Shown in pieces: positions 17,993 through 55,276 of a stretch of DNA of 64,000 bases (position 1 is its first letter; each line of letters begins with the position of its first letter). Location of the stretch: assembly GCA_965250045.1 (NCBI GenBank), contig OZ252286.1, forward strand, positions 2,870,317 through 2,934,316, given 5' to 3'. The DNA comes from Candidatus Marinacidobacterium sp. Lineage in GTDB: Bacteria; Acidobacteriota; Vicinamibacteria; Marinacidobacterales; Marinacidobacteraceae. Position numbers and translations under genes: made by a program. The notes beneath the pieces were generated by a model that saw nothing but the letters and a program-made list of their open reading frames with translations, was not told where the DNA came from and searched no databases.

Positions 17993-19380
17993 GAGCTATG
18001 GTCGAAAGTGGGTGACGTCGGGAGAAAGGGGTGGCGTATCGTGGGAGTAACCAACCTTCCACATCTCCAAGGAGGAGTGATACGCCATGACGGAGAGTAC
18101 CGTTGTTTTCCTTCCCTCAGCAGAGGGAGTTGAGGATCCGCTGACGGAGGTTCTGCGAGCGGGAGCCCGCGAGCTGGTGAGGCACGCGGTGGAGGCGGAG
18201 GTGGCGGCGCTGCTGGTGGCGTATGAGGATCACCGGACCGGAGGCGGCCGTCGGCGCGTGGTGCGTCACGGGCATGGCCCGGAGCGGGCGATCCTGACGG
18301 GGATCGGTCCGGTACCGGTGCGTCGGCCGAAGGTTCGGGACCGGGGTGGCGCGGGAGAGGATCGTGTCCGGTTCTCTTCGCGGATCCTGCCGCGATTCGC
18401 GCGGCGGACGCGCTCGCTGGACGCGGCGCTGCCGACGCTGTATCTGCTGGGAGTATCGAGCGGGGACTTTGGGGAAGCGCTGTCGGAGCTGTTGGGTTGT
18501 GGGGCCTCGGGGCTGTCGCCGGGCGTGATCGGCCGTTTGAAGGCGGAGTGGGAGTCGGAACACGAGCGCTGGCGTCTGCGGGATCTGTCGGACCGGCGGT
18601 ATGTCTACGTGTGGGCGGACGGGATCTACCTTCAGGGCCGGCTGGAAGACGAAAAGCAGTGCGTTCTGGTGCTGATCGGGGCGACGCCGGAGGGCAAAAA
18701 GGAACTGCTGGGGTTCCAGACGGGGTTCCGGGAGAGCGCCCAGAGTTGGCGGGAACTGCTGGAGGATCTCAAGGGGCGTGGCCTCCAGATCCCCCCGGAG
18801 CTGGCGATCGGGGACGGAGCTCTCGGCTTCTGGAAGGCGCTGGACGAGGTCTTCCCCAAGACCCGCCGCCAGCGCTGCTGGGTCCACAAGACCGCGAACA
18901 TACTGAACGCGTTGCCCAAGTCCCGGCACCGGAACGCCAAGCAGGACCTGCATCAGATCTGGATGGCGGAGGGGCGCGCCGAGGCGGAGCAGGCGATGGA
19001 CACCTTCGAGGCCAAATACCAGGCCAAGTATGGGAAGGCGGTCACCTGCCTGACCAAGGACCGCGACGCCCTGCTGGCCTTCTACGACTTCCCGGCCGAG
19101 CATTGGCAGCACATCCGGACCACCAACCCCATCGAGAGCGTCTTCGCTACCGTCCGGCATCGGACCGTTCGTAGCAAGGGATGCCTCTCTCACAAGACCG
19201 CACTGGCGATGGTCTTCAAACTGGTCATCGCTGCCAGCAAGACCTGGCGCCGCCTCAACGGCTACGAGCAGTTGCCCCGGCTCATCCAGGGCGTCAAATT
19301 TACCGACGGCATTCAAGCCGACGAAACCGAAACCCGCGCCGCCGCCTGATCATGTTGTCACCCACTTTCGGCCATAGCTC
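17993..19380 (+). mobile_element. IS256-family insertion sequence, copy 1 (1388 bp)
   Basis: Terminal inverted repeats GAGCTATGGTCGAAAGTGGGTGACG / CGTCACCCACTTTCGRCCATAGCTC; encodes a 420-aa transposase. Confidence 0.85.
18087..19349 (+). CDS. IS256-family (mutator-type) transposase
   Basis: 420 aa; typical IS256 architecture with catalytic region ...VWADGIYLQ...CWVHKTANILNALPK... Confidence 0.85.
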   Translation: MTESTVVFLPSAEGVEDPLTEVLRAGARELVRHAVEAEVAALLVAYEDHRTGGGRRRVVRHGHGPERAILTGIGPVPVRRPKVRDRGGAGEDRVRFSSRILPRFARRTRSLDAALPTLYLLGVSSGDFGEALSELLGCGASGLSPGVIGRLKAEWESEHERWRLRDLSDRRYVYVWADGIYLQGRLEDEKQCVLVLIGATPEGKKELLGFQTGFRESAQSWRELLEDLKGRGLQIPPELAIGDGALGFWKALDEVFPKTRRQRCWVHKTANILNALPKSRHRNAKQDLHQIWMAEGRAEAEQAMDTFEAKYQAKYGKAVTCLTKDRDALLAFYDFPAEHWQHIRTTNPIESVFATVRHRTVRSKGCLSHKTALAMVFKLVIAASKTWRRLNGYEQLPRLIQGVKFTDGIQADETETRAAA

Positions 19381-23924: not shown

Positions 23925-26900
23925 TCAGAAGGGGATCGACATTCGCACCATCACCGCTAGATCAGTCGGACCCGTTCTGTTCTTCCGCCTCGTGGCTTCC
24001 ATTTCCAACCTCAATGGCAGCGCCAGCTGCGAGCGTGGAGGCAGGCTACAAGCGGTCCCCCAGGCCAGCTCCCGGCCCTGTCCGGCCCAGCGCAGCCGGC
24101 TATAGGGCGTCAGCAGACACGGTAAGCCCAGCGCCTTCAGGCCGCCGTAGGCCACCTCGCTTTCCATCCGCGACTGCGAACCCATTCCCGCGGCATCCAT
24201 TCCCACCGGGTGCGTGACCATATTAGCGTTGTTCCATAGCGTCGTTCGGCCGCCTCCATCCTGGCCCCGCGAGGAGTTCACCGACACCCGCAACCCGCGC
24301 TGCTTCTCCCCCGGGTCCCAGCTCACCTGCAAGCCCGCACCCCAGTCCCGGTAGTCACTCTCATGCACCACCAGCACCCGCCCGTACAGCGCCGCGTCCA
24401 GGCCACTGTGCGCGTCCAGATACCCCAGACGGAAACCGGTTTCCATCCCAGCGCCCCGATCCGCGTCGCCCCGGTCAAAACGCCCGCCCGCTTCCGCCGT
24501 CAGGCTCAGTGACCGACCCGCCGACAGCGCCGCGTCATGCACCCACTCCAGCATCAACCGGCCCCGCTGGGCTTCACCGCGCACCGCCGCGATGTCCGCC
24601 AACGCGTCGGTCCCCAGTTGCGTCGTGAAGGCATCCGCGCGCACACCCCACTCATTGCTGCCCCGCCCCCCGAGCACCGCCCGCACGCCCCCGGCGAACA
24701 TCCGAAACTCGGCGCCGAAGTCGTGCGTCCGGCCCGGCTCTTCCACCTCCACTTGACCCTGTCCCAAGCCGCCAATGCCCCACACGCTCAACCGCGCGCT
24801 CGGCTGCCAGTACACATACGGGTGAACCGTGTTCATCCGACTCTCCAGCAACCCCGCCACCCCATCGTCCGTGTACTCCAGGTCCCCCCAGCTGCGCATG
24901 AACGACAGCCCCGCCAGAACCCGATCGTTGGCATACAGGTCCAGACCTACATGCGCGGCTTCGAGACCGCCGCCATAGTCCATACCCAGCCGCGTCAAGT
25001 CGCCGTTGAAGCGCTGCAGATCACCCTGGGCCCACATTACCGGCACCCAACTCGTCTCGCCCTCGCTCTCTCCCAGGGACATCTCGAACGACGCTCCAGA
25101 AAGGTTGAGCGCTTGCCCCACCATGGCCGAGTACCCAGCCGATCCCGCGTCCCTGGTCCCAGCACCCGGGATGAGCTCTTGATCCCGCATCCCGGAGAAG
25201 TCCCCCGAGCCCGGTCCCAGCCGCGCGTCTCCAAACCCGGAACCAAAGTGTCGATCCTGACCGGAGACTCGCCCGCCAGGCGCCGCACCGTAGCCGGAAG
25301 ACATGGCCGAGCCGCTCTGGGCGGCGCGCGCGAGGTTCTCAAACGAACCCAGCACCACATTGCGCAGCCACGAGACGGGCGTGCCGGTCTCCCGATGCTC
25401 CGAGTTCCAATCCGATCCCGTTGCCGCGCTGGTCCGGGCTGCGCCGGCCTGGTCTGCGCCCCGCGCGTGCTCAACCAAGGAGCCTTCTGCTCCTCTGCCG
25501 CCGCTGCCCTCACTGCCTACCCGCTCCGATTCGCCCGCGCCCAGAGCCGCCGCGCGATTGGCGCGCCCCGGCTGCAATGTCGATACCGCCCCACCCGACG
25601 ACCCCAGACGACTCCACTGCCGATGCCGCTCAAAGCGACCCTCTATCGCCGTCTGCGCGCTCGCTCCCATCGAGCGTCCCATCACCGCCAACATCGCCTC
25701 CAGCGAGGACGTGAACTGCTCCGCCGTCCGCCGCTGTCTGAAGCTCACTCTTGTCTCCGAGAGCTCTCCGCCGCTCACCGCCTCCGGCAATACGCCCAGG
25801 CTCAGCACGATCCCCTCCCCGGGATCGCTCACTTCATCCGTCAGCACCTCCACGGAAATCGTCCCCTCACGCTCGCCTTCCTCGAACACCAACGTCGACG
25901 GCACTTCCTGAAAGTCCTCGGGCGTCGTCCCGCCTTCGAGCGCCACCACGAGCGGTATCTCCAGCCGCCGGTCCGCGGCCGGGGAAACTGTCACCTTGAT
26001 CTCTGCCACCTCGCCTTCCTGCACTTCATACGCTGCCTGCCCAAAGCTCACCACGAGCTCCACCAGCCCCTTGTCTTCGAGCGTCACTATCGCCACGGCC
26101 GGTTCCCCGGCCAGCACGATCTCCGGCAGCTCCCCAAAGCCCAGCTCCACCGTCTCGTCGTCCCCATCCCCATCATGGTTGGCTGCAATCGTGAAGGTCT
26201 GTTCCGTCGCGCCGGCCCCGAAGGTAAGCGTTCCCGTGCCCGCCTCGGCATCCCAATCCTTCAACCCCTCGACCTGGTAGTCGCCTACTTCCGTCGTCTC
26301 CGGCCGCGTCACCCGGACCGGAATCGCCAACTCTTCGTCACCCGCCTTGCTCAGCTTCACCGTCACCGTCACCGACTCCCCACCTTCGGTTGCCGTGTAG
26401 CTCTCCGCCGCATAGCTCACCACAATGCCTGTCGCAATGACGAACGGCGCCGCCGCCTCATTGCCGTTGCTGGCGGCGTCCTCAGCCACATCCTCGGCAA
26501 CCTCCACCACCACCGGCTGTCCCACCACCGTCGGCTCGATTGTGGCTCGATACTCACTCGATGACACCGCGGTGAAGTCCGCTACCGTCCCGTTGGTGAC
26601 CTGAATATCGCTCTGCTCGAAACCCGTGACCGCCTCGCTAAAGGTGATCGTTACCTCGAACGCACCCCCCACCGGTCCCGCGGCCGCGCTGGTGATCTCC
26701 ACCTTCGGTGGGGCCGCCGCCTCGCTCGTGATCGCCACCGTGGGGCCGGCGCGGTCCCTCGCCGCGGCCCGGTGGACCTTGATGGTGTAGGTCTGAGTGG
26801 GCGTCCCGTCCGCGGCAGTCACCTGCACCGGGATGGAGGTTGCAGCACCCAAGGCCAGGGCAATCGCGTCACTGGCGCTCCGGCTCGCCACCACGCTGCC

Positions 26901-29900
26901 GTTCACCGTCACCGTCGCGCCGACTTCAGCCGTCGTCGGCGTCACTTTCACACTGTCTGTAGAGGCCTCCACGGCGACGGCGTAGCTCGTGGTCGTCGCG
27001 GCGAAGTCCGGTGTCAGCGTCCCCGGCGAGACGGTCAGGTTCAACAGGTTCGCGTTGGAGCCGCTCTCAAGGATCGCCACGCTCACCGGTACGTCGATCG
27101 TGACGATCCCGTCCGTGACGGCGTAGCGAAACATATCGGTGCCGGTGAAGCCGGCCTTGGGCGTATAGGTGACGGTGGTCCCGTTGGTGTTGATCTCGGC
27201 GGTCCCGTTGCTCGGGCCCGTTCCGGGTAAGCCCACCTCGACCACGCGGAGGATCGTCCCCGCGTCCACGTCCGAGTCGTTTTCCAACACGCCAATGACG
27301 ATTGGAATGTCTTGGCTGGTCTCGGCGGTGTCAGCCTTCGCCTCCGGCGGGTCGTTCACGGCATTCACGTTAATGGTGATGGTGTATGACGCCGCGCTGT
27401 CGAGCTCGCCGTCATTGACCTTGAAGTCGAACGTCGCGAAAGCGGCGCCGTTGGCATTGGCTGGCGGGGTGTACCTGAACTCGTCGGTGGCGGAGAACGT
27501 CACTTGCGGAGCCGTGTTGAGGTCGGTAATGTCCGTGCCATTGAACGACAGCGTCCCCCGGTCCGTCCCGGGCAGCGCGGTGATCTTCACATGGTCCAAC
27601 GTGGCGCCGTCGACGTCCGAGAAGCCAAAGTCCGCCTCACCAAACGTGTACGTCGTGTCCTCGTCCATGGACACCGTCTTGTCGGAACCCGTGAGGGAGT
27701 CGTCCACGGCATTCACGTTAATGGTGATGGTGTATGCCAACTCGCTGTCGGCCGCGCCGTCATTGACCTTGAAGTCGAACGTCGCGAAAGCGGCGCCGTT
27801 GGCATTGGCTGACGGGGTGTATGTGAGATTGCCGGCATCGAGCCCGGTCTTTGCCACCTGCCTGGGCGTCCTGACATCGGTAATGGGCGTGCCGCCAACC
27901 GACAGCGTTCCCCGGTTCTGCTCGGGCAGTGCAGTGATCTTCAAGCGGTTCAGCGTGGCGCCGGATTTGACGCTCGTGAAGCCGAAGTCCGCCACCTTAA
28001 AGGTGTACGTCGTGTCCTCGTCCGTGGACACTGTGTTGTGGGAAGCCGTGGGGGCGTCGTTCACCGGCGTGGCGGTCGTGGTGGATGCAGGGCCGCGACC
28101 GGAAGCGTTCTCGGCACGCACCGCAAACGTGTACTGGGTGCCGTTGGTCAGTCCGATCACGGTGGTGGTGGTAGTGCTCGCACCGCTGTCGCTGATGTCG
28201 GCGAAGGTCGTGCCACCGTCCTTGCTGACCTGGTACTTGGTGATCGTGTTGTTGCCCGGATCGTCCCAGGACAGAGTGACTTGGCCGTTACTCGGCGTGG
28301 CCGTGAGGTTCGTCGGGGGGGCCGGCGAGACCACCATCGGCGTGGCATCCACGGCGGCTGGCCAACTGCTGTCCGCGGAGTCCTGTGTCGCCAGCACCGT
28401 GAAGGTGTATTCGGTGCCGTTGTTCAACGAGTCAATGGCAGCGATCGTCTTCGACCCCGAACCGGCTGGCACGTCCACCGAATTGCCGTCCGAGATGTCT
28501 ACCCGATAATCGGTGATCCCGGGGTTCCTGTCCCACTCCAGGAAGACCCGGCTGCTGTCCGGCGTCGCCACCAAATTGGTCGGCGCGGGCCACAGTGGCG
28601 TGGCAGTCGCGGTGGATGCCGCGCCGTAACCCCACCAGTTCACCCCGCGCACCGCCAGCGTGTACTGGGTGCCGTTGGTCAGACCGGTCACGGTGGTGGT
28701 GGTAGTGCTCTTGCTGCTGCCGCTGATGTCGGTGAAGGTCGTGCCACCGTCCATGCTGATCTGGTACTTGTAGATCGTGTCGTTGTCCGGATCGCTCCAG
28801 GACAGAGTGGTCTGGCGGTCGTCACCCTCGGTGGCCGTAAGGTTCTCCGGGGCCGGCATGGATATCGGTCTGGCCGTCACGGTGGGTGATTCCTTACCGT
28901 TCAGCGCCCGCACACTGAAGGCGTACAGGGTGCCGTTGGTCAGTGGATAAACGGTGCGAGTCGTCGTCGAACCCGATCCGGGAGGAAGGAATATGGTGTT
29001 ACGCCGGACACCGTCTTCATAGACATAGATATAATAATCGTCGATGTCGTCGTGGCCGTTGTTCCACTCCACGGTAACCCGACCCTGGCCCGCCGTCGCC
29101 ACCAAACCGGTCGGCGCGGGCCACAGTGGCGTGGCGGTCACGGTGGATTCCGCGCCGTTACCGCCAGCGTTCACCGCCCGCACCGCAAACGTGTACTGGG
29201 TGCCGTTGGTCAGACCGGTCACGGTGTAGCTGGTCGTGGTGTCATCGCTGCCGCTGATGACGCTGAAGGAGCCACCGTCGGTGCTGTACTCGTACTCGTC
29301 GATTGTGCTGTCGCCCGGATCGTCCCAGGTAAGACCGATCTGTCTGTCACCCACCTCGGCCTCGAGATTCGTCGGGGCGGTCGGGGCCAGTGCCGGCGTG
29401 GCGGTCACGGTGGATTCCGCGCCGTTACCGCCAGCGTTCACCGCCCGCACCGCAAACGTGTACTGGGTGCCGTTGGTCAGGCCGGTCACGGTGTAGCTGG
29501 TCGTGGTGTCACCGCTGTTGGGGATGTCGGCCCAGCTGCTGTAGGTCCCCGTGTCGGTTTTCCGGCGATACTGGTATTTCGTGATGGTGTTGTTGGCCGG
29601 ATTGGCCCAGGACAGAGTGACCTGGCCGTCATCCGGCGTGGCCGAGAGGTTCATTGGGGCGGCCGGGGCGCGAATTTGCCCATTGACCCTGATTTGTAAC
29701 ACACTGAAATTAATCGAACTCCACCCGGTTGAGCCCGGGGTGCGCGCGTGGCGTTCATTCCTGATGCTCCACCCGATGGCCGAAGCGGAATCTTGGAGGT
29801 TAGATGTCGTATTGTCCCATTGGGGGTAACTAGCACTGCCGTTAGGCGCGAAAACCATTTGCACGAAGTATTGGGTGTTTGCACTCAGACTGGCACCGGC

Positions 29901-30290
29901 AGGGGCGGTGAACGTTCGGAGTCCCGCCGCCACGTTGGCCGGGTTGTTCAAGGTATATAATGTATTGCCCCCCGGATCGCCCGATCCGTCGTCACCCCTC
30001 ACCGTTACCGTCAGGGTTCCGCTACCCGAAGCCACGCCTACGCCCAATTCGATACTTGTCAAGGAGTAGCCCAGTGTATTCTGGCCCGTGGTGAACCCCT
30101 GAGCATGGTCACTGGGATTTACGGGTGTCTGACCGGCGTTAGATTGGCCCGTATTGCTCACGAGCACGGTCTGGGCGTGCGCTGGCGCCGGAAAGCCAAG
30201 CATCAGCATCGCGGCGGCGAGGAATAAGCCGATGATTCTCAGCCGCGGGTCTTTCCTCCGCATCACGCCCTGAATATCCGAGCGGTCCAA
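23925..30290 (-). CDS. Giant (2121 aa) autotransporter-like surface adhesin: signal peptide, multiple FN3, cadherin-like/Ig-like and Calx-beta domains, C-terminal outer-membrane beta-barrel
   Basis: N-terminal signal RIIGLFLAAAMLMLGFPAPAHA; repeated FN3 units (...TKYQY...TSYTVTGLTNGTQYTFAVRAVNAGGNG...); VNDAPTA/VNDPPEA cadherin-like units; Calx-beta-like blocks. The C-terminal ~600 aa is Gly/aromatic-rich with alternating pattern and ends ...VRMSIPF (terminal Phe). Near-identical intragenic DNA repeats. Confidence 0.7.
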   Translation of the reverse strand: MDRSDIQGVMRRKDPRLRIIGLFLAAAMLMLGFPAPAHAQTVLVSNTGQSNAGQTPVNPSDHAQGFTTGQNTLGYSLTSIELGVGVASGSGTLTVTVRGDDGSGDPGGNTLYTLNNPANVAAGLRTFTAPAGASLSANTQYFVQMVFAPNGSASYPQWDNTTSNLQDSASAIGWSIRNERHARTPGSTGWSSINFSVLQIRVNGQIRAPAAPMNLSATPDDGQVTLSWANPANNTITKYQYRRKTDTGTYSSWADIPNSGDTTTSYTVTGLTNGTQYTFAVRAVNAGGNGAESTVTATPALAPTAPTNLEAEVGDRQIGLTWDDPGDSTIDEYEYSTDGGSFSVISGSDDTTTSYTVTGLTNGTQYTFAVRAVNAGGNGAESTVTATPLWPAPTGLVATAGQGRVTVEWNNGHDDIDDYYIYVYEDGVRRNTIFLPPGSGSTTTRTVYPLTNGTLYAFSVRALNGKESPTVTARPISMPAPENLTATEGDDRQTTLSWSDPDNDTIYKYQISMDGGTTFTDISGSSKSTTTTTVTGLTNGTQYTLAVRGVNWWGYGAASTATATPLWPAPTNLVATPDSSRVFLEWDRNPGITDYRVDISDGNSVDVPAGSGSKTIAAIDSLNNGTEYTFTVLATQDSADSSWPAAVDATPMVVSPAPPTNLTATPSNGQVTLSWDDPGNNTITKYQVSKDGGTTFADISDSGASTTTTTVIGLTNGTQYTFAVRAENASGRGPASTTTATPVNDAPTASHNTVSTDEDTTYTFKVADFGFTSVKSGATLNRLKITALPEQNRGTLSVGGTPITDVRTPRQVAKTGLDAGNLTYTPSANANGAAFATFDFKVNDGAADSELAYTITINVNAVDDSLTGSDKTVSMDEDTTYTFGEADFGFSDVDGATLDHVKITALPGTDRGTLSFNGTDITDLNTAPQVTFSATDEFRYTPPANANGAAFATFDFKVNDGELDSAASYTITINVNAVNDPPEAKADTAETSQDIPIVIGVLENDSDVDAGTILRVVEVGLPGTGPSNGTAEINTNGTTVTYTPKAGFTGTDMFRYAVTDGIVTIDVPVSVAILESGSNANLLNLTVSPGTLTPDFAATTTSYAVAVEASTDSVKVTPTTAEVGATVTVNGSVVASRSASDAIALALGAATSIPVQVTAADGTPTQTYTIKVHRAAARDRAGPTVAITSEAAAPPKVEITSAAAGPVGGAFEVTITFSEAVTGFEQSDIQVTNGTVADFTAVSSSEYRATIEPTVVGQPVVVEVAEDVAEDAASNGNEAAAPFVIATGIVVSYAAESYTATEGGESVTVTVKLSKAGDEELAIPVRVTRPETTEVGDYQVEGLKDWDAEAGTGTLTFGAGATEQTFTIAANHDGDGDDETVELGFGELPEIVLAGEPAVAIVTLEDKGLVELVVSFGQAAYEVQEGEVAEIKVTVSPAADRRLEIPLVVALEGGTTPEDFQEVPSTLVFEEGEREGTISVEVLTDEVSDPGEGIVLSLGVLPEAVSGGELSETRVSFRQRRTAEQFTSSLEAMLAVMGRSMGASAQTAIEGRFERHRQWSRLGSSGGAVSTLQPGRANRAAALGAGESERVGSEGSGGRGAEGSLVEHARGADQAGAARTSAATGSDWNSEHRETGTPVSWLRNVVLGSFENLARAAQSGSAMSSGYGAAPGGRVSGQDRHFGSGFGDARLGPGSGDFSGMRDQELIPGAGTRDAGSAGYSAMVGQALNLSGASFEMSLGESEGETSWVPVMWAQGDLQRFNGDLTRLGMDYGGGLEAAHVGLDLYANDRVLAGLSFMRSWGDLEYTDDGVAGLLESRMNTVHPYVYWQPSARLSVWGIGGLGQGQVEVEEPGRTHDFGAEFRMFAGGVRAVLGGRGSNEWGVRADAFTTQLGTDALADIAAVRGEAQRGRLMLEWVHDAALSAGRSLSLTAEAGGRFDRGDADRGAGMETGFRLGYLDAHSGLDAALYGRVLVVHESDYRDWGAGLQVSWDPGEKQRGLRVSVNSSRGQDGGGRTTLWNNANMVTHPVGMDAAGMGSQSRMESEVAYGGLKALGLPCLLTPYSRLRWAGQGRELAWGTACSLPPRSQLALPLRLEMEATRRKNRTGPTDLAVMVRMSIPF

Positions 30291-30722: not shown

Positions 30723-32110
30723 GAGCTATGGTCGAAAGTGGGTGACGTCGGGAGAAAGGGGTGGCGTATCGTGGGAGTAACCAACCTTCCACATCTCCAA
30801 GGAGGAGTGATACGCCATGACGGAGAGTACCGTTGTTTTCCTTCCCTCAGCAGAGGGAGTTGAGGATCCGCTGACGGAGGTTCTGCGAGCGGGAGCCCGC
30901 GAGCTGGTGAGGCACGCGGTGGAGGCGGAGGTGGCGGCGCTGCTGGTGGCGTATGAGGATCACCGGACCGGAGGCGGCCGTCGGCGCGTGGTGCGTCACG
31001 GGCATGGCCCGGAGCGGGCGATCCTGACGGGGATCGGTCCGGTACCGGTGCGTCGGCCGAAGGTTCGGGACCGGGGTGGCGCGGGAGAGGATCGTGTCCG
31101 GTTCTCTTCGCGGATCCTGCCGCGATTCGCGCGGCGGACGCGCTCGCTGGACGCGGCGCTGCCGACGCTGTATCTGCTGGGAGTATCGAGCGGGGACTTT
31201 GGGGAAGCGCTGTCGGACCTGTTGGGTTGTGGGGCCTCGGGGCTGTCGCCGGGCGTGATCGGCCGTTTGAAGGCGGAGTGGGAGTCGGAACACGAGCGCT
31301 GGCGTCTGCGGGATCTGTCGGACCGGCGGTATGTCTACGTGTGGGCGGACGGGATCTACCTTCAGGGCCGGCTGGAAGACGAAAAGCAGTGCGTTCTGGT
31401 GCTGATCGGGGCGACGCCGGAGGGCAAAAAGGAACTGCTGGGGTTCCAGACGGGGTTCCGGGAGAGCGCCCAGAGTTGGCGGGAACTGCTGGAGGATCTC
31501 AAGGGGCGTGGCCTCCAGATCCCCCCGGAGCTGGCGATCGGGGACGGAGCTCTCGGCTTCTGGAAGGCGCTGGACGAGGTCTTCCCCAAGACCCGCCGCC
31601 AGCGCTGCTGGGTCCACAAGACCGCGAACATACTGAACGCGTTGCCCAAGTCCCGGCACCGGAACGCCAAGCAGGACCTGCATCAGATCTGGATGGCGGA
31701 GGGGCGCGCCGAGGCGGAGCAGGCGATGGACACCTTCGAGGCCAAATACCAGGCCAAGTATGGGAAGGCGGTCACCTGCCTGACCAAGGACCGCGACGCC
31801 CTGCTGGCCTTCTACGACTTCCCGGCCGAGCATTGGCAGCACATCCGGACCACCAACCCCATCGAGAGCGTCTTCGCTACCGTCCGGCATCGGACCGTTC
31901 GTAGCAAGGGATGCCTCTCTCACAAGACCGCACTGGCGATGGTCTTCAAACTGGTCATCGCTGCCAGCAAGACCTGGCGCCGCCTCAACGGCTACGAGCA
32001 GTTGCCCCGGCTCATCCAGGGCGTCAAATTTACCGACGGCATTCAAGCCGACGAAACCGAAACCCGCGCCGCCACCTGATCATGTCGTCACCCACTTTCG
32101 ACCATAGCTC
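30723..32110 (+). mobile_element. IS256-family IS, copy 3 (near-identical to copy 1)
   Basis: Same TIRs; transposase differs from copy 1 at only ~2 residues. Confidence 0.85.
30817..32079 (+). CDS. IS256-family transposase (copy 3)
   Basis: 420 aa, ~99.5% identical to 18087-19349. Confidence 0.85.
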   Translation: MTESTVVFLPSAEGVEDPLTEVLRAGARELVRHAVEAEVAALLVAYEDHRTGGGRRRVVRHGHGPERAILTGIGPVPVRRPKVRDRGGAGEDRVRFSSRILPRFARRTRSLDAALPTLYLLGVSSGDFGEALSDLLGCGASGLSPGVIGRLKAEWESEHERWRLRDLSDRRYVYVWADGIYLQGRLEDEKQCVLVLIGATPEGKKELLGFQTGFRESAQSWRELLEDLKGRGLQIPPELAIGDGALGFWKALDEVFPKTRRQRCWVHKTANILNALPKSRHRNAKQDLHQIWMAEGRAEAEQAMDTFEAKYQAKYGKAVTCLTKDRDALLAFYDFPAEHWQHIRTTNPIESVFATVRHRTVRSKGCLSHKTALAMVFKLVIAASKTWRRLNGYEQLPRLIQGVKFTDGIQADETETRAAT

Positions 32111-47356: not shown

Positions 47357-48163
47357 GTGATGCGAGATGTGAACAAGGTCGTGCTGCGCGGTGTGATTTC
47401 CGACGCTCCGCGGACGAAGGTCTTCGAGGACGGGCGCAAGCTGGTCAACCTGAACGTCAAGACCGTGACCATCGAGAACGACGATACGGGGGCGATGCGG
47501 GAACGCCCAGCCTGGCACCAGGTCGTCGTGCGCGGCGAGCGGAACGTGGAGGTTGCGGAGCGGGTGGCGCCGGATAGTCCGATCTACGTGGAAGGACAAC
47601 TCCGGACCCGCAAATACCAGAACAAGCAGGGTGAAGACGTGTACTTCACGGAAGTTCGCGCCGACATCGTGCGCACGACCGAGAGCGCCGATCCTCACGT
47701 CAACCGTTCGATCGTCCTGGGAAATCTGGGGCGGACACCGGAACTGCGGAAGTTCGATTCCTTCATGGTGATGAACCTCACGGTAGCCACCAGCGAAAGC
47801 TGGACCCGACGGGGCGGGGAAACGAACGAAGAGACCGAATGGCACCAGGTCGCGGTGTTCGGAGAGGCTGCCCAGCGTCTGGAGGGCCAGCTCGAGAAGG
47901 GGCAGCGGGTCCTCGTGGAAGGCCGAGTGCAGACCCGGAAGTACACGGACCGGAGTGGTCGGGAACGCCGGAGCACCGAAACTCAGGCTCACTCGGTATT
48001 CGGAAGCGGGAACACGCAGCGCGACGGTTATCAATCTCCGGGGCGTTCCGCCACCGAGAGAAGCGCGCCAGACGCCGGGACGCGCGAGAACCGGAACCGG
48101 CAGGACGCCTGGGGATCCAGCGGAGTCGATACCAAGGACGACGTGGACGACGTCCCGTTCTGA
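47357..48163 (+). CDS. ssb: Single-stranded DNA-binding protein with two OB folds
   Basis: Two tandem SSB OB domains (KVVLRGVIS...VYFTEVRADIV and IVLGNLGRTPELR...HQVAVFGEAAQRL...), Gly/Ser/Arg-rich tail and acidic C-terminus ...DDVDDVPF. Confidence 0.75.
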   Translation: MMRDVNKVVLRGVISDAPRTKVFEDGRKLVNLNVKTVTIENDDTGAMRERPAWHQVVVRGERNVEVAERVAPDSPIYVEGQLRTRKYQNKQGEDVYFTEVRADIVRTTESADPHVNRSIVLGNLGRTPELRKFDSFMVMNLTVATSESWTRRGGETNEETEWHQVAVFGEAAQRLEGQLEKGQRVLVEGRVQTRKYTDRSGRERRSTETQAHSVFGSGNTQRDGYQSPGRSATERSAPDAGTRENRNRQDAWGSSGVDTKDDVDDVPF

Positions 48164-48450
48164 CGACGAGCGTTCCGGGAACGGGGCACGAGAAAGGCAT
48201 GGCGTAGCGATAACCAAGGGAACAAAGTAGGGGCCCCGTTCCCGAAACGCCCGGCGCTCCGCGCCGGGATCGCAACTCCCTTGCGCGCCCTCGGCGCGCG
48301 GCGGCGAGTTCCGATTCGATGTCGTCTTTTTGTGAAAGAGGGAGTTCCCCCTTTCACACTTTCCCCCTGATCTCGCGGTCAGCGAACAAAGTTCGCTGCC
48401 ATCAGTCTTTGCTGCTTGCTTGGTGCTGCGCCGTTCGCCCTCACGGGATG

Positions 48451-48620
48451 CAGGCACGGGAACGCCGACCTCCGGTCGGCACAGCGGCGCGGAGCGCCGC
48501 GGACGGCGTGGACGCGGAGTGGCGTCATGGTGCCCATCTCGGCAATGACTCCATCAGGCGTAATGGTGTGCAGGCACGGGAACGCCAACTTCAGACCGGC
48601 ACCGCGGCCCGCAGGGCCGC
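48451..48620 (+). repeat. Two ~45-bp direct repeats (TGCAGGCACGGGAACGCCRACYTC...CGGCAC.GCGGC) separated by ~75 bp in the ssb-lexA intergenic region
   Basis: Copies at ~48451-48497 and ~48572-48620, each with an internal short hairpin (gccgacctccggtcggc). Confidence 0.55.
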
Positions 48621-48701
48621 GAGAGCCTCGCTATCCATCCTCTATCGTCGCCACCTGACGGCGTGGTCCAATCCAGGAAAGCTCCACCCCCTTCAATCTG
48701 G

Positions 48702-48725
48702 CATAGCAGACAAATGTCTGCTATG
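48702..48725 (+). promoter_or_regulatory. Candidate LexA operator: perfect 10-bp inverted repeat CATAGCAGAC-AAAT-GTCTGCTATG
   Basis: Ends 8 bp upstream of the lexA ATG, where a self-regulating SOS box is expected. Confidence 0.5.
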
Positions 48726-48733
48726 CTGCGTGC

Positions 48734-49369
48734 ATGCCCAAAACGCCGCCGGGGCAGACCCGGAACCGGATCTTTCACTTCGTCCGCGACCGCCTGCTTC
48801 AGGGCGACTCTCCTTCCCTTCGTGAGGTACAGCGGCATTTCGGTTTCCGGGCCGTCGAGACCGTCCGGGCCCATCTCACCGCTCTCGTGGGAGAAGGACG
48901 ACTGGTCAAGGAATCAGGTCGTTCCCGCGGCTATCGGTTGCCTTCCCCAGCGTCAGGCCAAGCGTGGGGATGGTCTCCCAACCGCCTTCAGCCGGTTCCC
49001 CTCCTGGGCGAAGTCGCCGCCGGCGGTTTCGAAGAGGCCATCGAGAACCCGGAGGGGAATCTCCCGGTAGAGATCCCCGATTCCCGGGATCTCTCGGACT
49101 ACTTCGCACTCCGGGTGCGGGGGGAAAGCATGTCCGGGGCCGGCATCCTGCCCGGCGACACAGTCATCGTCGAACGCCAAGGGGCGCCAGTTTCCGGTCA
49201 GATCGTAGTGGCGCTCCTCGAAGAGGAAGCCACGGTGAAGCGACTCTACCTGGGGCAAGACGGAATGGAACTGCGTCCGGAGAACCCCGCCTTCAAAGCG
49301 CTCCGTCCACCTCCCGGGTCTTGTCGGATTCTCGGGAGAGTCGTGGAATTGCGCCGCCAGCTCCGCTGA
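48734..49369 (+). CDS. lexA: LexA repressor (S24 peptidase)
   Basis: N-terminal wHTH; Ala-Gly cleavage site (EVAAGGFEE); catalytic Ser/Lys region (ALRVRGESMSGAGILPGDTVIVERQ...KRL). Confidence 0.85.
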   Translation: MPKTPPGQTRNRIFHFVRDRLLQGDSPSLREVQRHFGFRAVETVRAHLTALVGEGRLVKESGRSRGYRLPSPASGQAWGWSPNRLQPVPLLGEVAAGGFEEAIENPEGNLPVEIPDSRDLSDYFALRVRGESMSGAGILPGDTVIVERQGAPVSGQIVVALLEEEATVKRLYLGQDGMELRPENPAFKALRPPPGSCRILGRVVELRRQLR

Positions 49370-49492
49370 TATCCAATGTCCCGCTGAATATCCGATGTCC
49401 CGCTGAATATCCAATGTCCCGCTGAATATCCGATGTCCCGCTGAATATCCAATGTCCCGCTGAATATCCGATGTTCGCTGAATACCCGGTGC
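49366..49492 (+). repeat. 19-bp tandem repeat x~6.5 (TATCCRATGTCCCGCTGAA) in the lexA-imuA intergenic region
   Basis: Begins 3 bp upstream of the lexA stop; near-perfect copies alternating A/G at position 6. Confidence 0.8.
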
Positions 49493-49511
49493 CCCCCGAA
49501 AGAGAACCCTG

Positions 49512-50471
49512 ATGCAGCAAACCCTCGCCCCTGCCCTGCACCAACAGCAGACATCCCTTCCCCAACTCGGCTTTCCCCAACTCGGCCGGTCGCCTGCCTC
49601 CCACAAACTTCCCCATAAACCCCCAAGTCCCCGGATCTCCCACCCTGCCCTGTCGACCCCTGACTCAGGATTTGTGAAATGGGGGCTGGCCCGGCTTGCC
49701 GGCAGTCTGGTGGAAATCTCTGGAACGGCTGATTCCGGAGTCCTGTCCTCAGCGCTGGCGCTTGTTGCCGAGGCCCAGCATCATCAGGCTCGACACCACA
49801 AAAAGCGTCATGGCCTGCATCCCGGTTCACATCCGGATCCTGCTGCAGGTTCTGCTCTGATCGCCTGGGTAGCGACAACCCACAGCCTCTTCTTCCCTCC
49901 GGACGCGGTGGAGTCCGGAATCGCTCTGGAGCGATTGGTTCTTCTTCGACTGGAAACGCCGGCGGCGCAGATCCGCGCCGCTACCCGGATTGTCCACTCA
50001 GGAGCTTTTGGGCTGGTGGTCGTGGACCTTGCCGATTCTGTTCAGCCGGAGAGTCCGGCCCGGAGACCGACCCCGGGATCCGTCGTGACATCCCCGCGAC
50101 TTCAAAGCCCGAGAACCCGAAGTCCGAGAGCCCAGAGCCCGAGAACCCTGGAAACCCGAAACCTGATGTCCCGCCCGAGCACCCCCCTCGGGATCCCTCC
50201 CCTGTCACGGCTTGCCGGACTCGCGCACAAATATCGAACCGCTGTCGTCCTGCTGACCGACAAGCCGCCGGCCGCCCCATCGATCGACCCCCGGGTGGGG
50301 AAGCGTTTCGACGCGAGCCGCAGGGAAAACGACATCGTCATCACCGTTCTCAAGGACAAGGGGAGCGGAGGTTCTTCCTCTACGGAATTTCCGCCGGTCC
50401 GCGGCAGGGATCGCCTTTTCCCCGGATTCCGTTTCGAAAGGAAATGCCGTGAGCCGGCTGGCATGTGTTGA
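49512..50471 (+). CDS. imuA: ImuA-like (RecA-fold, SulA/ImuA') SOS mutagenesis protein
   Basis: Position between lexA and imuB; RecA-like core (LVEISGTADSGVLSSALALVAEAQ...GAFGLVVVDL). The start is uncertain; 23-nt overlap with imuB. Confidence 0.5.
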   Translation: MQQTLAPALHQQQTSLPQLGFPQLGRSPASHKLPHKPPSPRISHPALSTPDSGFVKWGLARLAGSLVEISGTADSGVLSSALALVAEAQHHQARHHKKRHGLHPGSHPDPAAGSALIAWVATTHSLFFPPDAVESGIALERLVLLRLETPAAQIRAATRIVHSGAFGLVVVDLADSVQPESPARRPTPGSVVTSPRLQSPRTRSPRAQSPRTLETRNLMSRPSTPLGIPPLSRLAGLAHKYRTAVVLLTDKPPAAPSIDPRVGKRFDASRRENDIVITVLKDKGSGGSSSTEFPPVRGRDRLFPGFRFERKCREPAGMC

Positions 50472-52071
50472 CGTTCCGGCGCTGCCGCTACAGATCTTGC
50501 TCCGGCGTCACCCCGAATGGCGGCAGGAACCGGTGGCGGTGGTCACCGAAGACAAAACGCAGGCGCGAATTCACTGGGCAAACCGTCGGGCGGTCACTCA
50601 CGGGGTGCGTCCGGGTATGCGGCAAGCCGCTGCAGTCGCCTGCTGCCCCGCGCTCCGGATCGACCATGTCCGCTCTTCGGAAGTAGAACAGGAAGTCCGC
50701 CGACTGGCAGAGCGACTCCATCGCTGGAGTCCTCAGGTCGAATCGGCTTCATCCCTTGATCCGCACCTTTCCGGATTCGGTGCTGCCGGGACTTTCTGGC
50801 TTCGGGCATCCGGCCTGGCCGGATTGTTTGGTCCGCTTTCAGATTGGACCGACGCGCTACACCAGGATCTCGTGGAAGAGGGTTTTCATGTCTCGATCGC
50901 AGTGGGTTTCAACCGGTTCGGAACCTTTGCGGCGGCGCGGGCCATCTTCGGGCTGCAGATCTTTGAGAGTCCCACCGAGGAAAGAACCGCTGCCCTCAGG
51001 GCGCCGCTCGTCCGCTTTGGACTGTCGGAGAAGACTCTCGCCAGTCTGGGAAAGCTCGGCATCTCATCTCTTCGAGACTTGCTGCGCTTGGCCGGGAATG
51101 GACTGTCCGGGAAAGGACTGGCGAGCCGCTTTGGGAAAGAAGTTCTGGAACTCCATCGCCTTGCATCCGGAGGGAGTCCCGCGCCGGTTTGCGACGCCTT
51201 CCGCCCGGAAACACCGATCGAACAACGGATTTCCTTCGAGCCGCCCGAGATCGACATCGAACGGCTCATCTTCCACGCGAAGCGCCTCCTTGATCAGATC
51301 CTCGCCGATCTCGGCAAACGGGGCCTCGCGCTTGTCGAGCTCGCTTACGAAGTGAAATGCGAGGACGCTCCGCCAATTTCCGGATCGGTCCGCCCCGCCC
51401 TTCCCACCGAAGACAGCGTGAAGCTTCTTTCCCTGCTCCGCCTGCGGCTCAGAGCCATCTCCCCGGAAAACAGGGCCATCGCCAGGGGGCAGGAAGGTGA
51501 ACCCGGAAGAAGGATCCTCGCCCTCGTTCTCCGTGCTCTCGGCGGCCTTTACGTCTCTGAACAGCCCGGCCTGTACCAAAGCCCCGGCGAGGCTCTTTCC
51601 CGGGGTCCGAAAAAGGCGTCGGAAGCGCTGGCCCAGATTCAGGCCGAGTTCGGCGAGGACTCTCTGGTCCGGTTGGAAACCCGGGATGCGCACCTTCCCC
51701 GGGGGCGCTATCGCTGCCGGCCGGTCTCTCCAGAAAAGGCCGTCTCTCGCAGTCGCTCAGGCGAAAGCTTCCCGAAGGAATTTTTCGAGACCCGAGCGCC
51801 TCGCCTGATTCGCCGCATTTACGACCAGCCGCTCATCCTTCCCCATCGGGGTTCGGACGAACCGGACGGCTGGCTGCTTCGGGGAATCGAACACGGCCCC
51901 GTTCAGAGTTTCACCGGGCCCTATCGCATCTCCGGAGGCTGGTGGCGCCTCCTTTCGGGACGGCCGATCTCTCGCGACTACTTTTTTGTCCGCCTGAAGC
52001 GCGGCGATGTCTGCTGGGTTTTCTTCGACCGGGAGCGACGCTCATGGTTCCTCGAAGGCCGCGTTGAATGA
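50449..52071 (+). CDS. imuB: ImuB, Y-family DNA polymerase-like accessory protein
   Basis: N-terminus MSRLACVDVPALPLQILLRR is typical of ImuB; degenerate Y-family catalytic residues; located upstream of dnaE2. Confidence 0.75.
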   Translation: MSRLACVDVPALPLQILLRRHPEWRQEPVAVVTEDKTQARIHWANRRAVTHGVRPGMRQAAAVACCPALRIDHVRSSEVEQEVRRLAERLHRWSPQVESASSLDPHLSGFGAAGTFWLRASGLAGLFGPLSDWTDALHQDLVEEGFHVSIAVGFNRFGTFAAARAIFGLQIFESPTEERTAALRAPLVRFGLSEKTLASLGKLGISSLRDLLRLAGNGLSGKGLASRFGKEVLELHRLASGGSPAPVCDAFRPETPIEQRISFEPPEIDIERLIFHAKRLLDQILADLGKRGLALVELAYEVKCEDAPPISGSVRPALPTEDSVKLLSLLRLRLRAISPENRAIARGQEGEPGRRILALVLRALGGLYVSEQPGLYQSPGEALSRGPKKASEALAQIQAEFGEDSLVRLETRDAHLPRGRYRCRPVSPEKAVSRSRSGESFPKEFFETRAPRLIRRIYDQPLILPHRGSDEPDGWLLRGIEHGPVQSFTGPYRISGGWWRLLSGRPISRDYFFVRLKRGDVCWVFFDRERRSWFLEGRVE

Positions 52072-55000
52072 CACCTTGTACTTTCCTCTTTTCTGCAAGA
52101 GCAACGCTTCCTTCCTGGAAGGGGCGAGTCATCCTGAAGAACTGATCGAGGAGGCCCACGCCCTCGGCCTTCCCGGGATTGCACTCACCGACCGGAACGG
52201 CCTGTACGGGGCCGTCAAGGCCCATGTCGCGGCACGGGAGCGGGGTATCCGCTTGATACTCGGCGCTGAAACATCGGTGGCCGCAGCCGCAACCGGAAGA
52301 GGCAGGCCAGGCGAACAGGGAAGCATCCTCCTGCTCGCCCGGAACCGGACCGGTTACCGGAATCTGTGCCGGCTCCTGACCCGGGGGCTGTTACGAGGCC
52401 CCGGCGCCGTCTCTGACAAAGACCCCGAGGGGAATTCCCCGGGCATCCGATCCGGAACGGGCGGACGACCATCCCGCAAGGGAACCGCCGGTGTTTCCTG
52501 GGAAGAAATCGCTTCTCATGCCGAAGGGCTTCACGCACTCTGGGGAGGAGGCGTCTCTGCCCTCAAGCAGGAAACCCCTCCCGAGAAGCCGGCGCACCTG
52601 CTCCGGGAGGCTTTCGGGGAAAACATCCATGTCCTCATTACCCGGCACCGGGCTGACAACGACGTTCCCGAAGAGGCCCTTCTCCGCCAGCGGGCGAAGC
52701 AGTACCGGATCCCGATAACCGCCGCTACCGAGGTGCTCTACCACCGTCCGGGACGCCGGGAACTGCAGGATGTGCTCACCGCCATCCGTCACGGCGTGCC
52801 ACTTCAGGGTGCCGGACGACGTCTTCGTCCGAACGCGGAGCACTACCTGCTTTCCCCTGCCCTGTTCGCGGAACTCTTCGCCGACGATCCGATCGCGGTT
52901 GCCCGAACCCTGGAAATTGCCGAAACCTGCCGCTTCTCGCTCGACGAACTCCGTTACCGCTACCCCGCCGAGGATCTTCCCGGGGGCATGGATTCTTCAG
53001 CGCGACTCCGGGAACTGACGTTCAAAGGCGCAGCCGAGCGTTATCCCAGCGGCATTCCACCGGCTGTCCGACAGCAACTGGAAAAGGAACTGGCGCTGAT
53101 CCGTGAACTCGACTACGGCGGTTACTTCCTCACCATGGTCGAGATCGTGCGTTTTTGTCATGAGCAGGAAATCCTCTGTCAGGGACGGGGCTCGGCAGCA
53201 AACTCCGCAGTCTGCTACTGCCTCGGCATCACTGCGGTGGACCCGGTGCGAATGGGACTCTTGTTTGAGCGGTTCCTGTCCCGCGAACGCGCCGAGCCAC
53301 CCGATATTGACCTGGACATCATGCATTCCCGCCGGGAGGAGGTCATCCAGTTCCTGTACCGCAAGTACGGTGAGGGACGCGCCGCCATGGTGGCCAACAC
53401 CGTCTGTTATCGGACCCGGTCGGCAATCCGGGAGGTGGGGAAGACGCTCGGGTTTTCCGAGCGATCCGTGGATCGCCTGGCCCGCGCTTTTTCTCATCAC
53501 GAACCACTCTCGAGTGACCGGTTGTCGGCTGCCGGCTGGTCTTCTGAGGGAGCAGCAGCCCACCATCTCCTCCGTCTCGCGAACGAGATCCAGGGGTTTC
53601 CGCGACACCTCTCGATTCATCCCGGCGGATTCCTGCTCGGAGAAGAGCCGGTCTCTCACATCGTGCCCGTCGAAAACGCCGCGATGGAGGGAAGAACGGT
53701 CATCCAGTGGAACAAGGACGACATCGAGGAACTGGGCCTTTTCAAGGTGGATCTGCTGGGACTCGGAGCCCTGACCCAACTGGATCTCTGTTTCCGGATG
53801 CTCCGGAACTCACGGGGGCTCGATCTCTCCATGGCCAGCGTCCCCGCCAACGATCCGGAAACTTTTGCGATGATCCGGAAAGCCGCAACCATCGGTGTTT
53901 TCCAGATCGAAAGCCGAGCCCAAATGGCCATGCTGCCGCGACTTCTGCCCCGCAACTACTACGACCTGGTGATCGAAGTGAGCATCGTTCGGCCCGGGCC
54001 CATCGCCGGAGGAATGGTGCATCCCTACCTCCGCCGCCGTCGGGGAGAAGAAGCGGTGGAATACCCTCACCCGTCCCTCCGGCCCGTTCTGGAAAAGACC
54101 CTTGGGGTGCCGCTGTTTCAGGAACAGGTGATGCGGCTCGCGGTGGTCGCCGCCGACTACACCGCCGGCGAGGCCGATCAACTCCGCCGCGACATGGCGG
54201 CCTGGCGGCGCACCGGCCGGATGGAACGACATCGGAGCCGCCTGCTTTCCCGGATGTGCGCCAAGGGGATCGCTCCCGAGTTCGCGAAACGCGTATTCGA
54301 GCAGATTCAGGGATTTGGCGAGTACGGCTTTCCCGAAAGCCACGCCGCCAGTTTCGCTCTCATCAGCTATGCCGGCGCTTTCCTGCTCTGTCACTACCCG
54401 GCGGAGTTCGCATGCGCGCTGCTGAATGCGCAACCGATGGGTTTTTATGCTCCGGCAACAATCATCGAGGACGCCAAACGACGGGGAGTGCGCTTTCTTC
54501 CGGTGGATCTGACTGCGAGTAGCTGGGACTGTTCTCTGGTTACCGGCTCCGCATCCTCCCAAGAAGCCGGGAAACCGGACGTCCGCATAGGCCTCCGCTA
54601 CGTGAAGGGGCTCGGTTCCGTCGATGGAGAGAAGATCGTGGCGGCTCGCCGGGAGTCGCCCTTTTCTTCCATCGCCGCCTTGGCGCGTCGTACCGGTCTT
54701 GGGAAAAAGGTGATGGTTGCACTTGCCGAGGCGGATGCACTCCAGAACCTCGGACCGAAAAACCGACGCGATGCGATTTGGCAGGCGCTTGCCGCGACAC
54801 CGGAAGACCCGCCCCTCCTGCGGGAAACCGTTCCCGGCTTTGCCTCGCTGGACAGTTTCGAATCCATCGTCTGGGACCATCGGACAACGGGCAGCAGCAC
54901 CCGAGGACATCCTCTGCTGCCGCTACGAAGCCAGCTAACCGCCGCCGGACTGCCCACCGCCCTCGAGGTAACGAAGCTTCGAAACGGGACGCGAGCGCGT

Positions 55001-55276
55001 TACGCGGGGATTGTGATCTGCCGCCAACGGCCGGGAACTGCTTCCGGGGTGGTGTTCATGACCCTAGAAGACGAAACCGGATTCGTGAATCTCATCCTCT
55101 GGCCGGACGTCTTCGAAGAACACCGCCACCTGGCTCAGACCCTGTCGTTCCTCGGAGCCGCCGGGCGGATTCAGGCGGAACAGGGCGCCACCCACATCGT
55201 GGTGGACCAACTCTTCCGGCCCCAGATTTCAAGGATGCCGAAACCGCCGGAGGTTCCGAGCCGCGATTTCCATTGA
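52007..55276 (+). CDS. dnaE2: Error-prone DNA polymerase DnaE2 (ImuC)
   Basis: N-terminal PHP domain (FPLFCKSNASFLEGASHPEEL...GIALTDRNGLYG), Pol III alpha catalytic core, C-terminal OB. Start may be the TTG at 52064, overlapping the imuB stop. Confidence 0.85.
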   Translation: MSAGFSSTGSDAHGSSKAALNDTLYFPLFCKSNASFLEGASHPEELIEEAHALGLPGIALTDRNGLYGAVKAHVAARERGIRLILGAETSVAAAATGRGRPGEQGSILLLARNRTGYRNLCRLLTRGLLRGPGAVSDKDPEGNSPGIRSGTGGRPSRKGTAGVSWEEIASHAEGLHALWGGGVSALKQETPPEKPAHLLREAFGENIHVLITRHRADNDVPEEALLRQRAKQYRIPITAATEVLYHRPGRRELQDVLTAIRHGVPLQGAGRRLRPNAEHYLLSPALFAELFADDPIAVARTLEIAETCRFSLDELRYRYPAEDLPGGMDSSARLRELTFKGAAERYPSGIPPAVRQQLEKELALIRELDYGGYFLTMVEIVRFCHEQEILCQGRGSAANSAVCYCLGITAVDPVRMGLLFERFLSRERAEPPDIDLDIMHSRREEVIQFLYRKYGEGRAAMVANTVCYRTRSAIREVGKTLGFSERSVDRLARAFSHHEPLSSDRLSAAGWSSEGAAAHHLLRLANEIQGFPRHLSIHPGGFLLGEEPVSHIVPVENAAMEGRTVIQWNKDDIEELGLFKVDLLGLGALTQLDLCFRMLRNSRGLDLSMASVPANDPETFAMIRKAATIGVFQIESRAQMAMLPRLLPRNYYDLVIEVSIVRPGPIAGGMVHPYLRRRRGEEAVEYPHPSLRPVLEKTLGVPLFQEQVMRLAVVAADYTAGEADQLRRDMAAWRRTGRMERHRSRLLSRMCAKGIAPEFAKRVFEQIQGFGEYGFPESHAASFALISYAGAFLLCHYPAEFACALLNAQPMGFYAPATIIEDAKRRGVRFLPVDLTASSWDCSLVTGSASSQEAGKPDVRIGLRYVKGLGSVDGEKIVAARRESPFSSIAALARRTGLGKKVMVALAEADALQNLGPKNRRDAIWQALAATPEDPPLLRETVPGFASLDSFESIVWDHRTTGSSTRGHPLLPLRSQLTAAGLPTALEVTKLRNGTRARYAGIVICRQRPGTASGVVFMTLEDETGFVNLILWPDVFEEHRHLAQTLSFLGAAGRIQAEQGATHIVVDQLFRPQISRMPKPPEVPSRDFH

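Follow-up and report, generated by a model that had tools for sequence, protein, structure and literature searches.

Does a block of short tandem repeats at the entry to an SOS mutagenesis operon tune the output of that operon, or is it an ordinary piece of variable DNA that was born where it lies? This question is raised by a 64-kb stretch of DNA (the whole stretch analysed is referred to below as the window), in which a 19-bp repeat is iterated between lexA and a cassette of genes for error-prone DNA synthesis. An earlier note on this DNA had proposed that the array could act as a variable-length promoter, an attenuator or a binding-site array, and that changes in repeat number might tune mutagenesis. 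We analysed the anatomy of the array, its origin and copy number in relatives, the signals present in and around it, and its relation to the translation start of imuA.

Results

The array lies between lexA and imuA of a lexA-imuA-imuB-dnaE2 cassette

The features of the region are given in Table 1. LexA (S24 plus wHTH), a RecA-like ImuA, a Y-family ImuB and DnaE2 are encoded in one order on one strand. The placing of the array at the entry to such a cassette was therefore correct: LexA, ImuB and DnaE2 were confirmed by profiles, and imuA is supported by its context and homologues. LexA scored 117.2 bits against NCBIfam TIGR00498 (cut-off 110.95); its closest named homologues come from Acidobacteriota MAGs, and the closest genomes are 3.7-3.9 Mb. 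DnaE2 scored 1280.8 bits against NF004225 (cut-off 939) in an alignment that begins at residue 25, and the true dnaE2 start probably lies some tens of nucleotides downstream of 52007. The first 23 nt of imuB lie within the end of imuA. The imuA ORF gave no Pfam or NCBIfam match above threshold; its product is 33% identical to RecA-like ImuA-type proteins, and many of its homologues carry PF00154. The assignment of ORF 49512-50471 as imuA is supported by gene context together with these RecA-like homologues.

Table 1. Features of the lexA-imuA region and of the downstream cassette (positions are those of the window)
Feature	Position	Strand	Evidence
Candidate LexA operator, 12+12 palindrome GCATAGCAGACA-AA-TGTCTGCTATGC	48701..48726		inverted repeat, 100% complementary
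lexA, 211 aa, stop TGA 49367-49369	48734..49369	+	Pfam Peptidase_S24 and LexA_DNA_bind
Five exact 19-bp units TATCCRATGTCCCGCTGAA, R = A,G,A,G,A	49370..49464	+	TRF and exact matching
Mini-ORFs ATG TCC CGC TGA, one per exact unit	49376-49387, 49395-49406, 49414-49425, 49433-49444, 49452-49463	+	
Sixth unit, 18 nt, TATCCGATGT-TCGCTGAA	49465..49482	+	
13-codon ORF MFAEYPVPPEREP* opened by the sixth-unit ATG	49471 to 49512	+	
Conserved ancestral imuA leader TACCCGGTGCCCCCCGAAAGAGAACCCTG	49483..49511	+	comparison with relatives
7-codon upstream ORF in the leader	GTG 49489 to TGA 49510-49512	+	
imuA-like gene, 319 aa, RecA-like core from residue 55	49512..50471	+	weak RecA match, homologues, position
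imuB, Y-family, IMS domain	50449..52071	+	Pfam PF00817; same gene order in relatives
dnaE2, error-prone DNA polymerase	52007..55276	+	NCBIfam NF004225, Pfam domains

A 26-bp palindrome is situated 8 nt upstream of the lexA ATG, where it overlaps a -10-like TATGCT. Its core, CAGACAAATGTCTG, is kept upstream of lexA in all fetched lineages, down to 73% LexA identity. Because the palindrome is conserved in every relative and contains the sole perfect CAGAC-N4-GTCTG dyad in the window, we take it as a candidate LexA operator, and the operon is likely to be controlled at this site only. That lexA and imuA are co-transcribed would follow from the 30-nt ancestral spacer, the ATGA overlap of the two genes in a relative and the lack of promoter and terminator matches (all described below). 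lexA has no Shine-Dalgarno sequence (-1.7 kcal/mol), and its ATG follows the TATGCT of the operator after 7 nt (48715-48736), a distance which suggests that the lexA mRNA is leaderless or near-leaderless.

The tol-pal cluster and ssb are found upstream of lexA. SSB (47357-48163) has 268 aa, and the better of its two SSB matches spans only residues 115-214; the SSB proteins of relatives likewise have two SSB hits. Judged by these matches, the SSB upstream of this SOS operon is an unusually long or double-OB form. Between ssb and lexA, two copies of a 53-nt element with a GC-rich hairpin are present (48449-48501 and 48569-48621), which are 83% identical, lie 120 bp apart and share a 17-nt core that occurs exactly at only these two sites of the window. 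The same gap is an IS insertion site in relatives, with an IS1595-type element in L004 and L005 and DDE_Tnp_1 in L028 and L043. Elsewhere in the window, two transposase ORFs of the Mutator family (IS256-like), each of 420 aa and in direct orientation (18087-19349 and 30817-32079), flank about 11 kb that include a 2121-aa fn3/cadherin/Calx-beta surface-protein ORF (23925-30290, minus strand), and the two ORFs with the DNA between them may form a composite transposon.

Five exact units are followed by a degenerate sixth and an ancestral leader

TRF detected a head-to-tail array at 49363-49484 with a period of 19 (6.5 copies, 92% matches, score 202), and with a period of 38 the same array gave 3.3 copies, 96% matches and a score of 223. 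It is the top-scoring TRF array in the 64-kb window. The 19-mer, with R at position 6, had five exact matches, all at 49370-49464, versus none in 100 shuffles, and the alternation of A and G at this one position, which had been noticed before, holds across all five exact units. The complete layout of 49363-49511 is ...CAGCTCCGCTGA / TATCCAATGTCCCGCTGAA TATCCGATGTCCCGCTGAA (x2.5) TATCCGATGT-TCGCTGAA TACCCGGTGCCCCCCGAAAGAGAACCCTG / imuA ATG. As also noticed before, the array begins within the end of lexA, since the last 7 nt of this gene, CCGCTGA, are the 3' part of the repeat unit.

The array had been described as six and a half perfect repeats that fill the whole gap to imuA. A 19-bp array is indeed present there, but only five of its units are perfect. 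The sixth is shorter by a 1-nt deletion, carries one substitution (C-to-T) and is the same in form as the single old unit of a sister species (see below). The supposed half unit is no expansion product: it is part of the conserved 29-nt imuA leader, which occupies the rest of the gap and is found in relatives that lack the array. This leader is array-free in L004 and L005, and it is also conserved in L002, L031-L040, L049-L058 and L007.

The array contains more C than G (GC skew -0.25 to -0.29) and is AT-richer than its flanks. It is not a CRISPR array, in agreement with the earlier note, given that the units abut directly without unique spacers and that their start-to-start spacing of 19 nt equals the unit length. 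A coding repeat was ruled out as well: the 19-nt unit is no multiple of three, and stops are present in all three plus-strand frames of the array. ORFs on the minus strand that run across the array overlap lexA and imuA and were taken as high-GC artefacts.

The array was born from the lexA-imuA junction and is hypervariable in one species

Fifty-one lexA-imuA junction loci were fetched by exact-protein look-ups, and all alleles come from metagenome assemblies (Table 2). Conspecific contigs, with flanks that are 98-99.8% identical to the window, hold six, four, four in another order, or three units next to an identical LexA, and sister species hold none or one. The expectation that repeat number might vary is thus borne out. 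L028 and L029 stem from one sample yet differ (four versus three units), and the difference between the window and L028 is exactly one 38-bp dimer of an A and a G unit. Hypervariability is confined to the species of the window; in the sister species the number, 0 or 1, is invariant in 23 contigs, and the repeat unit is not conserved outside one species.

Table 2. The lexA-imuA junction in the window and in relatives (G* denotes the 18-nt unit)
Relation	Locus	Similarity	Junction
Same species	window		6 units (A G A G A G*)
Same species	L028	identical LexA protein	4 units (A G A G*)
Same species	L029	identical LexA protein	3 units (A G G*)
Same species	L001 (= L030)	identical LexA protein	4 units, other order (G A G G)
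Sister species	L002, L031-L040, L049-L058 (21 contigs)	flanks 90-93%	a single old, diverged unit of 17 nt that does not vary
Sister species	L004, L005	flanks 87-91%	spacer of 30 nt, ATATCCGATGCCCTCCGAAAGAGAACCCTG, without an extra unit
More distant lineage	L006, L041-L048, L003	flanks about 79-88%	12-nt unit ACACCCCGCTRA: one copy in L006 and in 7 of L041-L048, three copies in L003 and L043
More distant lineage	L007-L012	flanks about 79-83%	18/20-nt two-copy duplication
More distant lineage	L059-L064	LexA 86%	no repeat
Most distant	L065, L066	LexA 73%	lexA stop overlaps imuA start (ATGA)

The unrepeated junction of L004 and L005, CCGCTGAATATCCGATGCC, consists of the last codon and stop of lexA (CGC TGA), 7 nt, and the ATG of the 7-codon upstream ORF. 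When the repeat unit is rotated to CCGCTGAATATCCGATGTC, it is identical to this junction at 18 of 19 positions. The array thus arose by local tandem amplification of the lexA-imuA junction. L065 and L066, for which a circular genome of 2.88 Mb is available, have their ATGA overlap at 2139-2142 and a perfect operator palindrome of 26 bp, and they carry thiolase and DUF547 genes in place of the ssb/tol-pal neighbourhood.

The 19-mer was also searched for elsewhere. With up to three mismatches allowed, the 64-kb window contained no further copy, among the fetched loci the 19-mer occurred only at the lexA-imuA junction, and there was none in viral contigs. The 596 Gb of representative genomes gave two single matches, in the unrelated taxa Desulfosporosinus and Ruegeria, where about nine are expected by chance. 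Scattered arrays, which the earlier note had named as the observation that would speak against a regulatory role, are thus absent from all sequence searched, and a dispersed or mobile repeat family was rejected for the sequence searched, on the chance-level genome matches and the lack of matches in viral contigs. A metagenome scan with the 3' end of lexA, GTCGTGGAATTGCGNCGCCA, yielded 13 matches, all of them in unrelated sequences.

Tandem duplication is a general habit of these genomes

Over about 9 kb, nearly all indels between conspecific contigs are tandem-repeat indels, which are in frame where they lie inside genes; the other sites concern 9-15-nt in-frame units in imuA, imuB and pal. 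Moreover, L001 carries a 188-bp tandem duplication, 99% identical, upstream of lexA (2882-3261, corresponding to ~48545-48736 in the window). Together these observations indicate that tandem duplication is a general mutational habit of these genomes. As a result of the duplication, L001 has two copies each of the candidate LexA operator, the promoter region and the lexA ATG, with the operators 188 bp apart; a second duplication, of about 250 bp, is present further upstream (about 2260-2760).

The repeats downstream in imuA have units of 12 or 15 nt and keep the frame, and a 12-nt in-frame repeat in the imuA N-terminus of sister species varies widely in copy number. It is only by its freedom from the multiple-of-three constraint that the intergenic array, with its 19-nt unit, differs from these other repeats. 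Four of the 10 TRF arrays in the window that score at least 50 fall within 1.8 kb around imuA, although this is a post-hoc count. This clustering, together with duplications at the same junction in three lineages, could have its cause in selection for variability and not in a hotspot of mutation.

The N-terminus of ImuA is clade-specific, C-rich, proline/serine-rich and of low complexity. In this N-terminus and in an internal loop, imuA contains in-frame VNTRs (49558-49586 and 50103-50148), with 15-nt and 12-nt units (PQLG, PLSA/SLST). Strain-variable VNTRs of this kind, also seen in L031-L040 (~2317-2400), place 55-92 residues before the conserved core. A 7-nt partial unit in the N-terminal VNTR of L038 (~2330-2360) frameshifts the gene, for which a 101-aa fragment was called; this may be a slippage off-switch, a pseudogene or an assembly error.

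imuA lacks a Shine-Dalgarno sequence and is preceded by a chain of mini-ORFs

The imuA start was placed at 49512 because the MQQTLAP that follows it is conserved with synonymous changes and because the repeats inside imuA stay in frame, as opposed to those of the array. Of 23 haplotypes, 22 have an N-terminus that remains open and keeps its frame despite the 12- and 15-nt repeat variation. A later start at GTG 49674, which would leave a gap of about 300 nt, is ruled out by the same conserved residues and open N-terminus. At -2.9 kcal/mol, the anti-SD duplex of imuA is weaker than those of ssb and pal, which reach about -9. The lack of a Shine-Dalgarno sequence and the ATGA overlap in a distant relative suggest that translation of imuA is normally coupled to translation upstream.

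Each mini-ORF of the array encodes MSR* and starts 6-7 nt past the preceding stop; no Shine-Dalgarno pairing was found upstream of the array ATGs. The stop of the 7-codon ORF in the leader shares one base with the imuA ATG (TGATG), and the 13-codon ORF opened by the sixth unit ends in the same TGA. The terminal 7-codon ORF is present in the species with no or one unit and in L007, there is none in L059, and in the lineage with the 12-nt unit it is fused in frame to imuA.

This arrangement invites the reading that the array is a selected contingency locus, or rheostat, in which slippage would set the number of mini-cistrons and hence the output of ImuA-ImuB-DnaE2 relative to LexA. An extra unit would cost either a further termination-reinitiation step or a longer stretch of C-rich, unstructured RNA on which Rho could load, and the setting would be heritable but reversible through copy number. 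Several observations agree with such a role. Copy number is hypervariable among conspecific contigs; every unit has its ATG TCC CGC TGA at a spacing of 7 nt from the preceding stop, and the last unit reads into the upstream ORF ending in TGATG in three of the four alleles. imuA has no Shine-Dalgarno sequence of its own and tight lexA-imuA coupling, by ATGA overlap, is seen in relatives, and coupling has been reported to fall as the distance between stop and start grows (review PMC12548453). The array has more C than G and its sense RNA is unstructured, so that it could expose RNA suited to Rho loading, and independent duplications have occurred at the same junction in other lineages. Against this, the chain of mini-ORFs arises automatically when a segment with a stop and a start is duplicated, and gives no evidence of design. 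L001 has no in-frame last unit, which indicates that this feature is not constrained; in the 23 contigs of the sister species the number stays at 0 or 1; and tandem-repeat indels are common everywhere in these genomes. We therefore consider a selected rheostat rather unlikely. That the number of mini-cistrons sets the passage of ribosomes (or of Rho-free transcripts) from lexA to imuA is in our estimate unlikely too.

Promoters, protein binding sites and RNA structures are not apparent in the array

Another reading places the function in the DNA, as iterated sites for LexA or another protein or as an internal imuA promoter of variable length. The regular 19-bp spacing directly upstream of imuA would suit it, and ATGTC, a part of the operator half-site, is found in each unit too. 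However, a search for sigma-70-type consensus promoters (-35 and -10 boxes at 16-18 nt spacing) gave none in 48200-49800 on either strand. The best match of the operator dyad in the array has 4 of 10 mismatches, a quality equalled by 96% of random window segments, and there was no match with two or fewer mismatches within 49370-49511. GAAC-N4-GTTC was matched at least as well by 53% of random 160-nt segments of the window, and the other motifs tested by 75% or more. An array of LexA sites, DnaA boxes, GTTC-N7-GTTC and GAAC-N4-GTTC were accordingly discarded, and with them the proposed binding-site array. In addition, the unit is missing from sister species that have the same operon and operator, and the 30-nt ancestral spacer is too short for a promoter. 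A regulatory array acting at the DNA level is hence very unlikely.

The other two roles that had been proposed fared no better. A variable-length promoter is not supported, as neither a sigma-70-like promoter nor a terminator was found in or around the array; the only terminator-like site (48218-48243, minus strand) lies far away. An attenuator is not supported either, as the sense RNA does not fold beyond its shuffles (z = -1.16) and no Rfam family reaches gathering score in the array. Alleles with 3, 4 and 6 units do not differ in the predicted accessibility of the imuA start region, and a structured sense RNA or one that sequesters the ribosome-binding site was rejected on these grounds. 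The antisense strand of the array (49350-49530) does fold better than shuffles (z = -3.8), owing to G-U pairs that GGAUAUUC forms with itself between adjacent units; a search for an antisense promoter at the array gave none.

Tandem repeats are a known source of assembly errors, and all alleles come from metagenome assemblies, but a mis-called repeat number in these long-read data is extremely unlikely in view of the array length of only 114-142 bp, which is far below read length, of the linkage of different unit orders (AGAGAG*, AGAG*, AGG*, GAGG) to flanking SNPs, and of the occurrence of arrays in independent samples at coverages from 11x to 130x.

Discussion

The results presented here argue that the array, which lies between two cistrons of an SOS mutagenesis operon, is quite probably an ordinary VNTR that was born locally and has become hypervariable. 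A 19-bp piece of the junction, composed of the last lexA codon with its stop, 7 nt and the ATG of the short upstream ORF, would have been amplified by replication slippage or unequal recombination, and the same processes would keep changing the array. The array would lie in the untranslated spacer of a lexA-imuA-imuB-dnaE2 transcript that is driven from the operator/promoter upstream of lexA, and it would have no sequence-specific function of its own. Its growth would have lengthened the spacer from the ancestral 30 nt to 142 nt and inserted five start-stop mini-cistrons, none with a Shine-Dalgarno sequence, between lexA and the short ORF that overlaps the imuA start. As imuA has no Shine-Dalgarno sequence either, the likeliest functional side-effect of a rising copy number would be a weaker translational coupling of imuA to lexA. 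Tuning of mutagenesis, as proposed earlier, would on the sequence features described here be possible only through spacer length and translational coupling.

The closest known elements are generic bacterial VNTRs and, functionally, intercistronic repeats of the MIRU type. Like the bacterial VNTR or minisatellite loci used for MLVA typing, the array consists of near-identical head-to-tail units in the range of 10-100 bp without spacers, and its copy number differs between near-identical strains (6, 4, 4' and 3 units), with changes by a single unit or by a block of two at a time. Nothing essential sets it apart from such loci; here, the origin from a local gene junction can be reconstructed. The array is thus a previously undescribed VNTR locus in an uncultured Acidobacteriota lineage.

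MIRUs, such as the intercistronic VNTR of senX3-regX3, have units of about 46-101 bp and belong to a family that is dispersed over many loci and apparently mobile. The present array resembles them in having tandem units within an operon, here an inferred one, between co-oriented genes, with five MSR* mini-ORFs and a 13-codon ORF whose TGA overlaps the imuA ATG. It is not a member of this family, as its unit has 19 bp, is found at one locus only in the searched sequence and derives from the junction itself, and as its host belongs to the Acidobacteriota instead of Mycobacterium. MIRUs contain an internal ORF that is coupled to the downstream gene, at -4 nt (review PMC12548453), whereas the overlap at imuA is -1 nt (TGATG).

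The contingency loci of Haemophilus, Neisseria and Campylobacter are similar in that slippage-prone repeats with a high allelic diversity adjoin a gene whose dosage could be relevant under stress. Classical contingency repeats have units of 1-8 nt, lie inside an ORF or between -35 and -10, and mediate on/off switching. The units described here differ in having 19 nt, in lying in an intercistronic spacer and in changing the frame of no gene.

The arrangement lexA-imuA-imuB-dnaE2 is prevalent across Bacteria, and a lexA-imuA gap of 264 bp in Opitutus terrae is still treated as part of an operon (PMC4951493). The cassette studied here has the same gene order with a putatively self-regulated lexA at its head, but its candidate operator, CAGAC-N4-GTCTG in a 26-bp palindrome, is not among the motifs given in that study (PMC4951493). 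A limited literature check found no report of a tandem array in the lexA-imuA spacer.

The series from no unit to one and then to three to six units, seen across species at 90% and then at 99% identity, amounts to the birth of a minisatellite from a gene junction, and strains of this uncultured Acidobacteriota lineage could be told apart by the array. If copy number altered the output of ImuA and DnaE2, the locus would exemplify how repeat length can naturally control translational coupling or polarity within an operon, and it would connect a hypermutable sequence with the expression of an inducible mutagenesis machinery. If the number of mini-cistrons did set passage into imuA, sub-populations would differ in the strength of their mutasome after SOS induction, with a mutable element controlling mutability.
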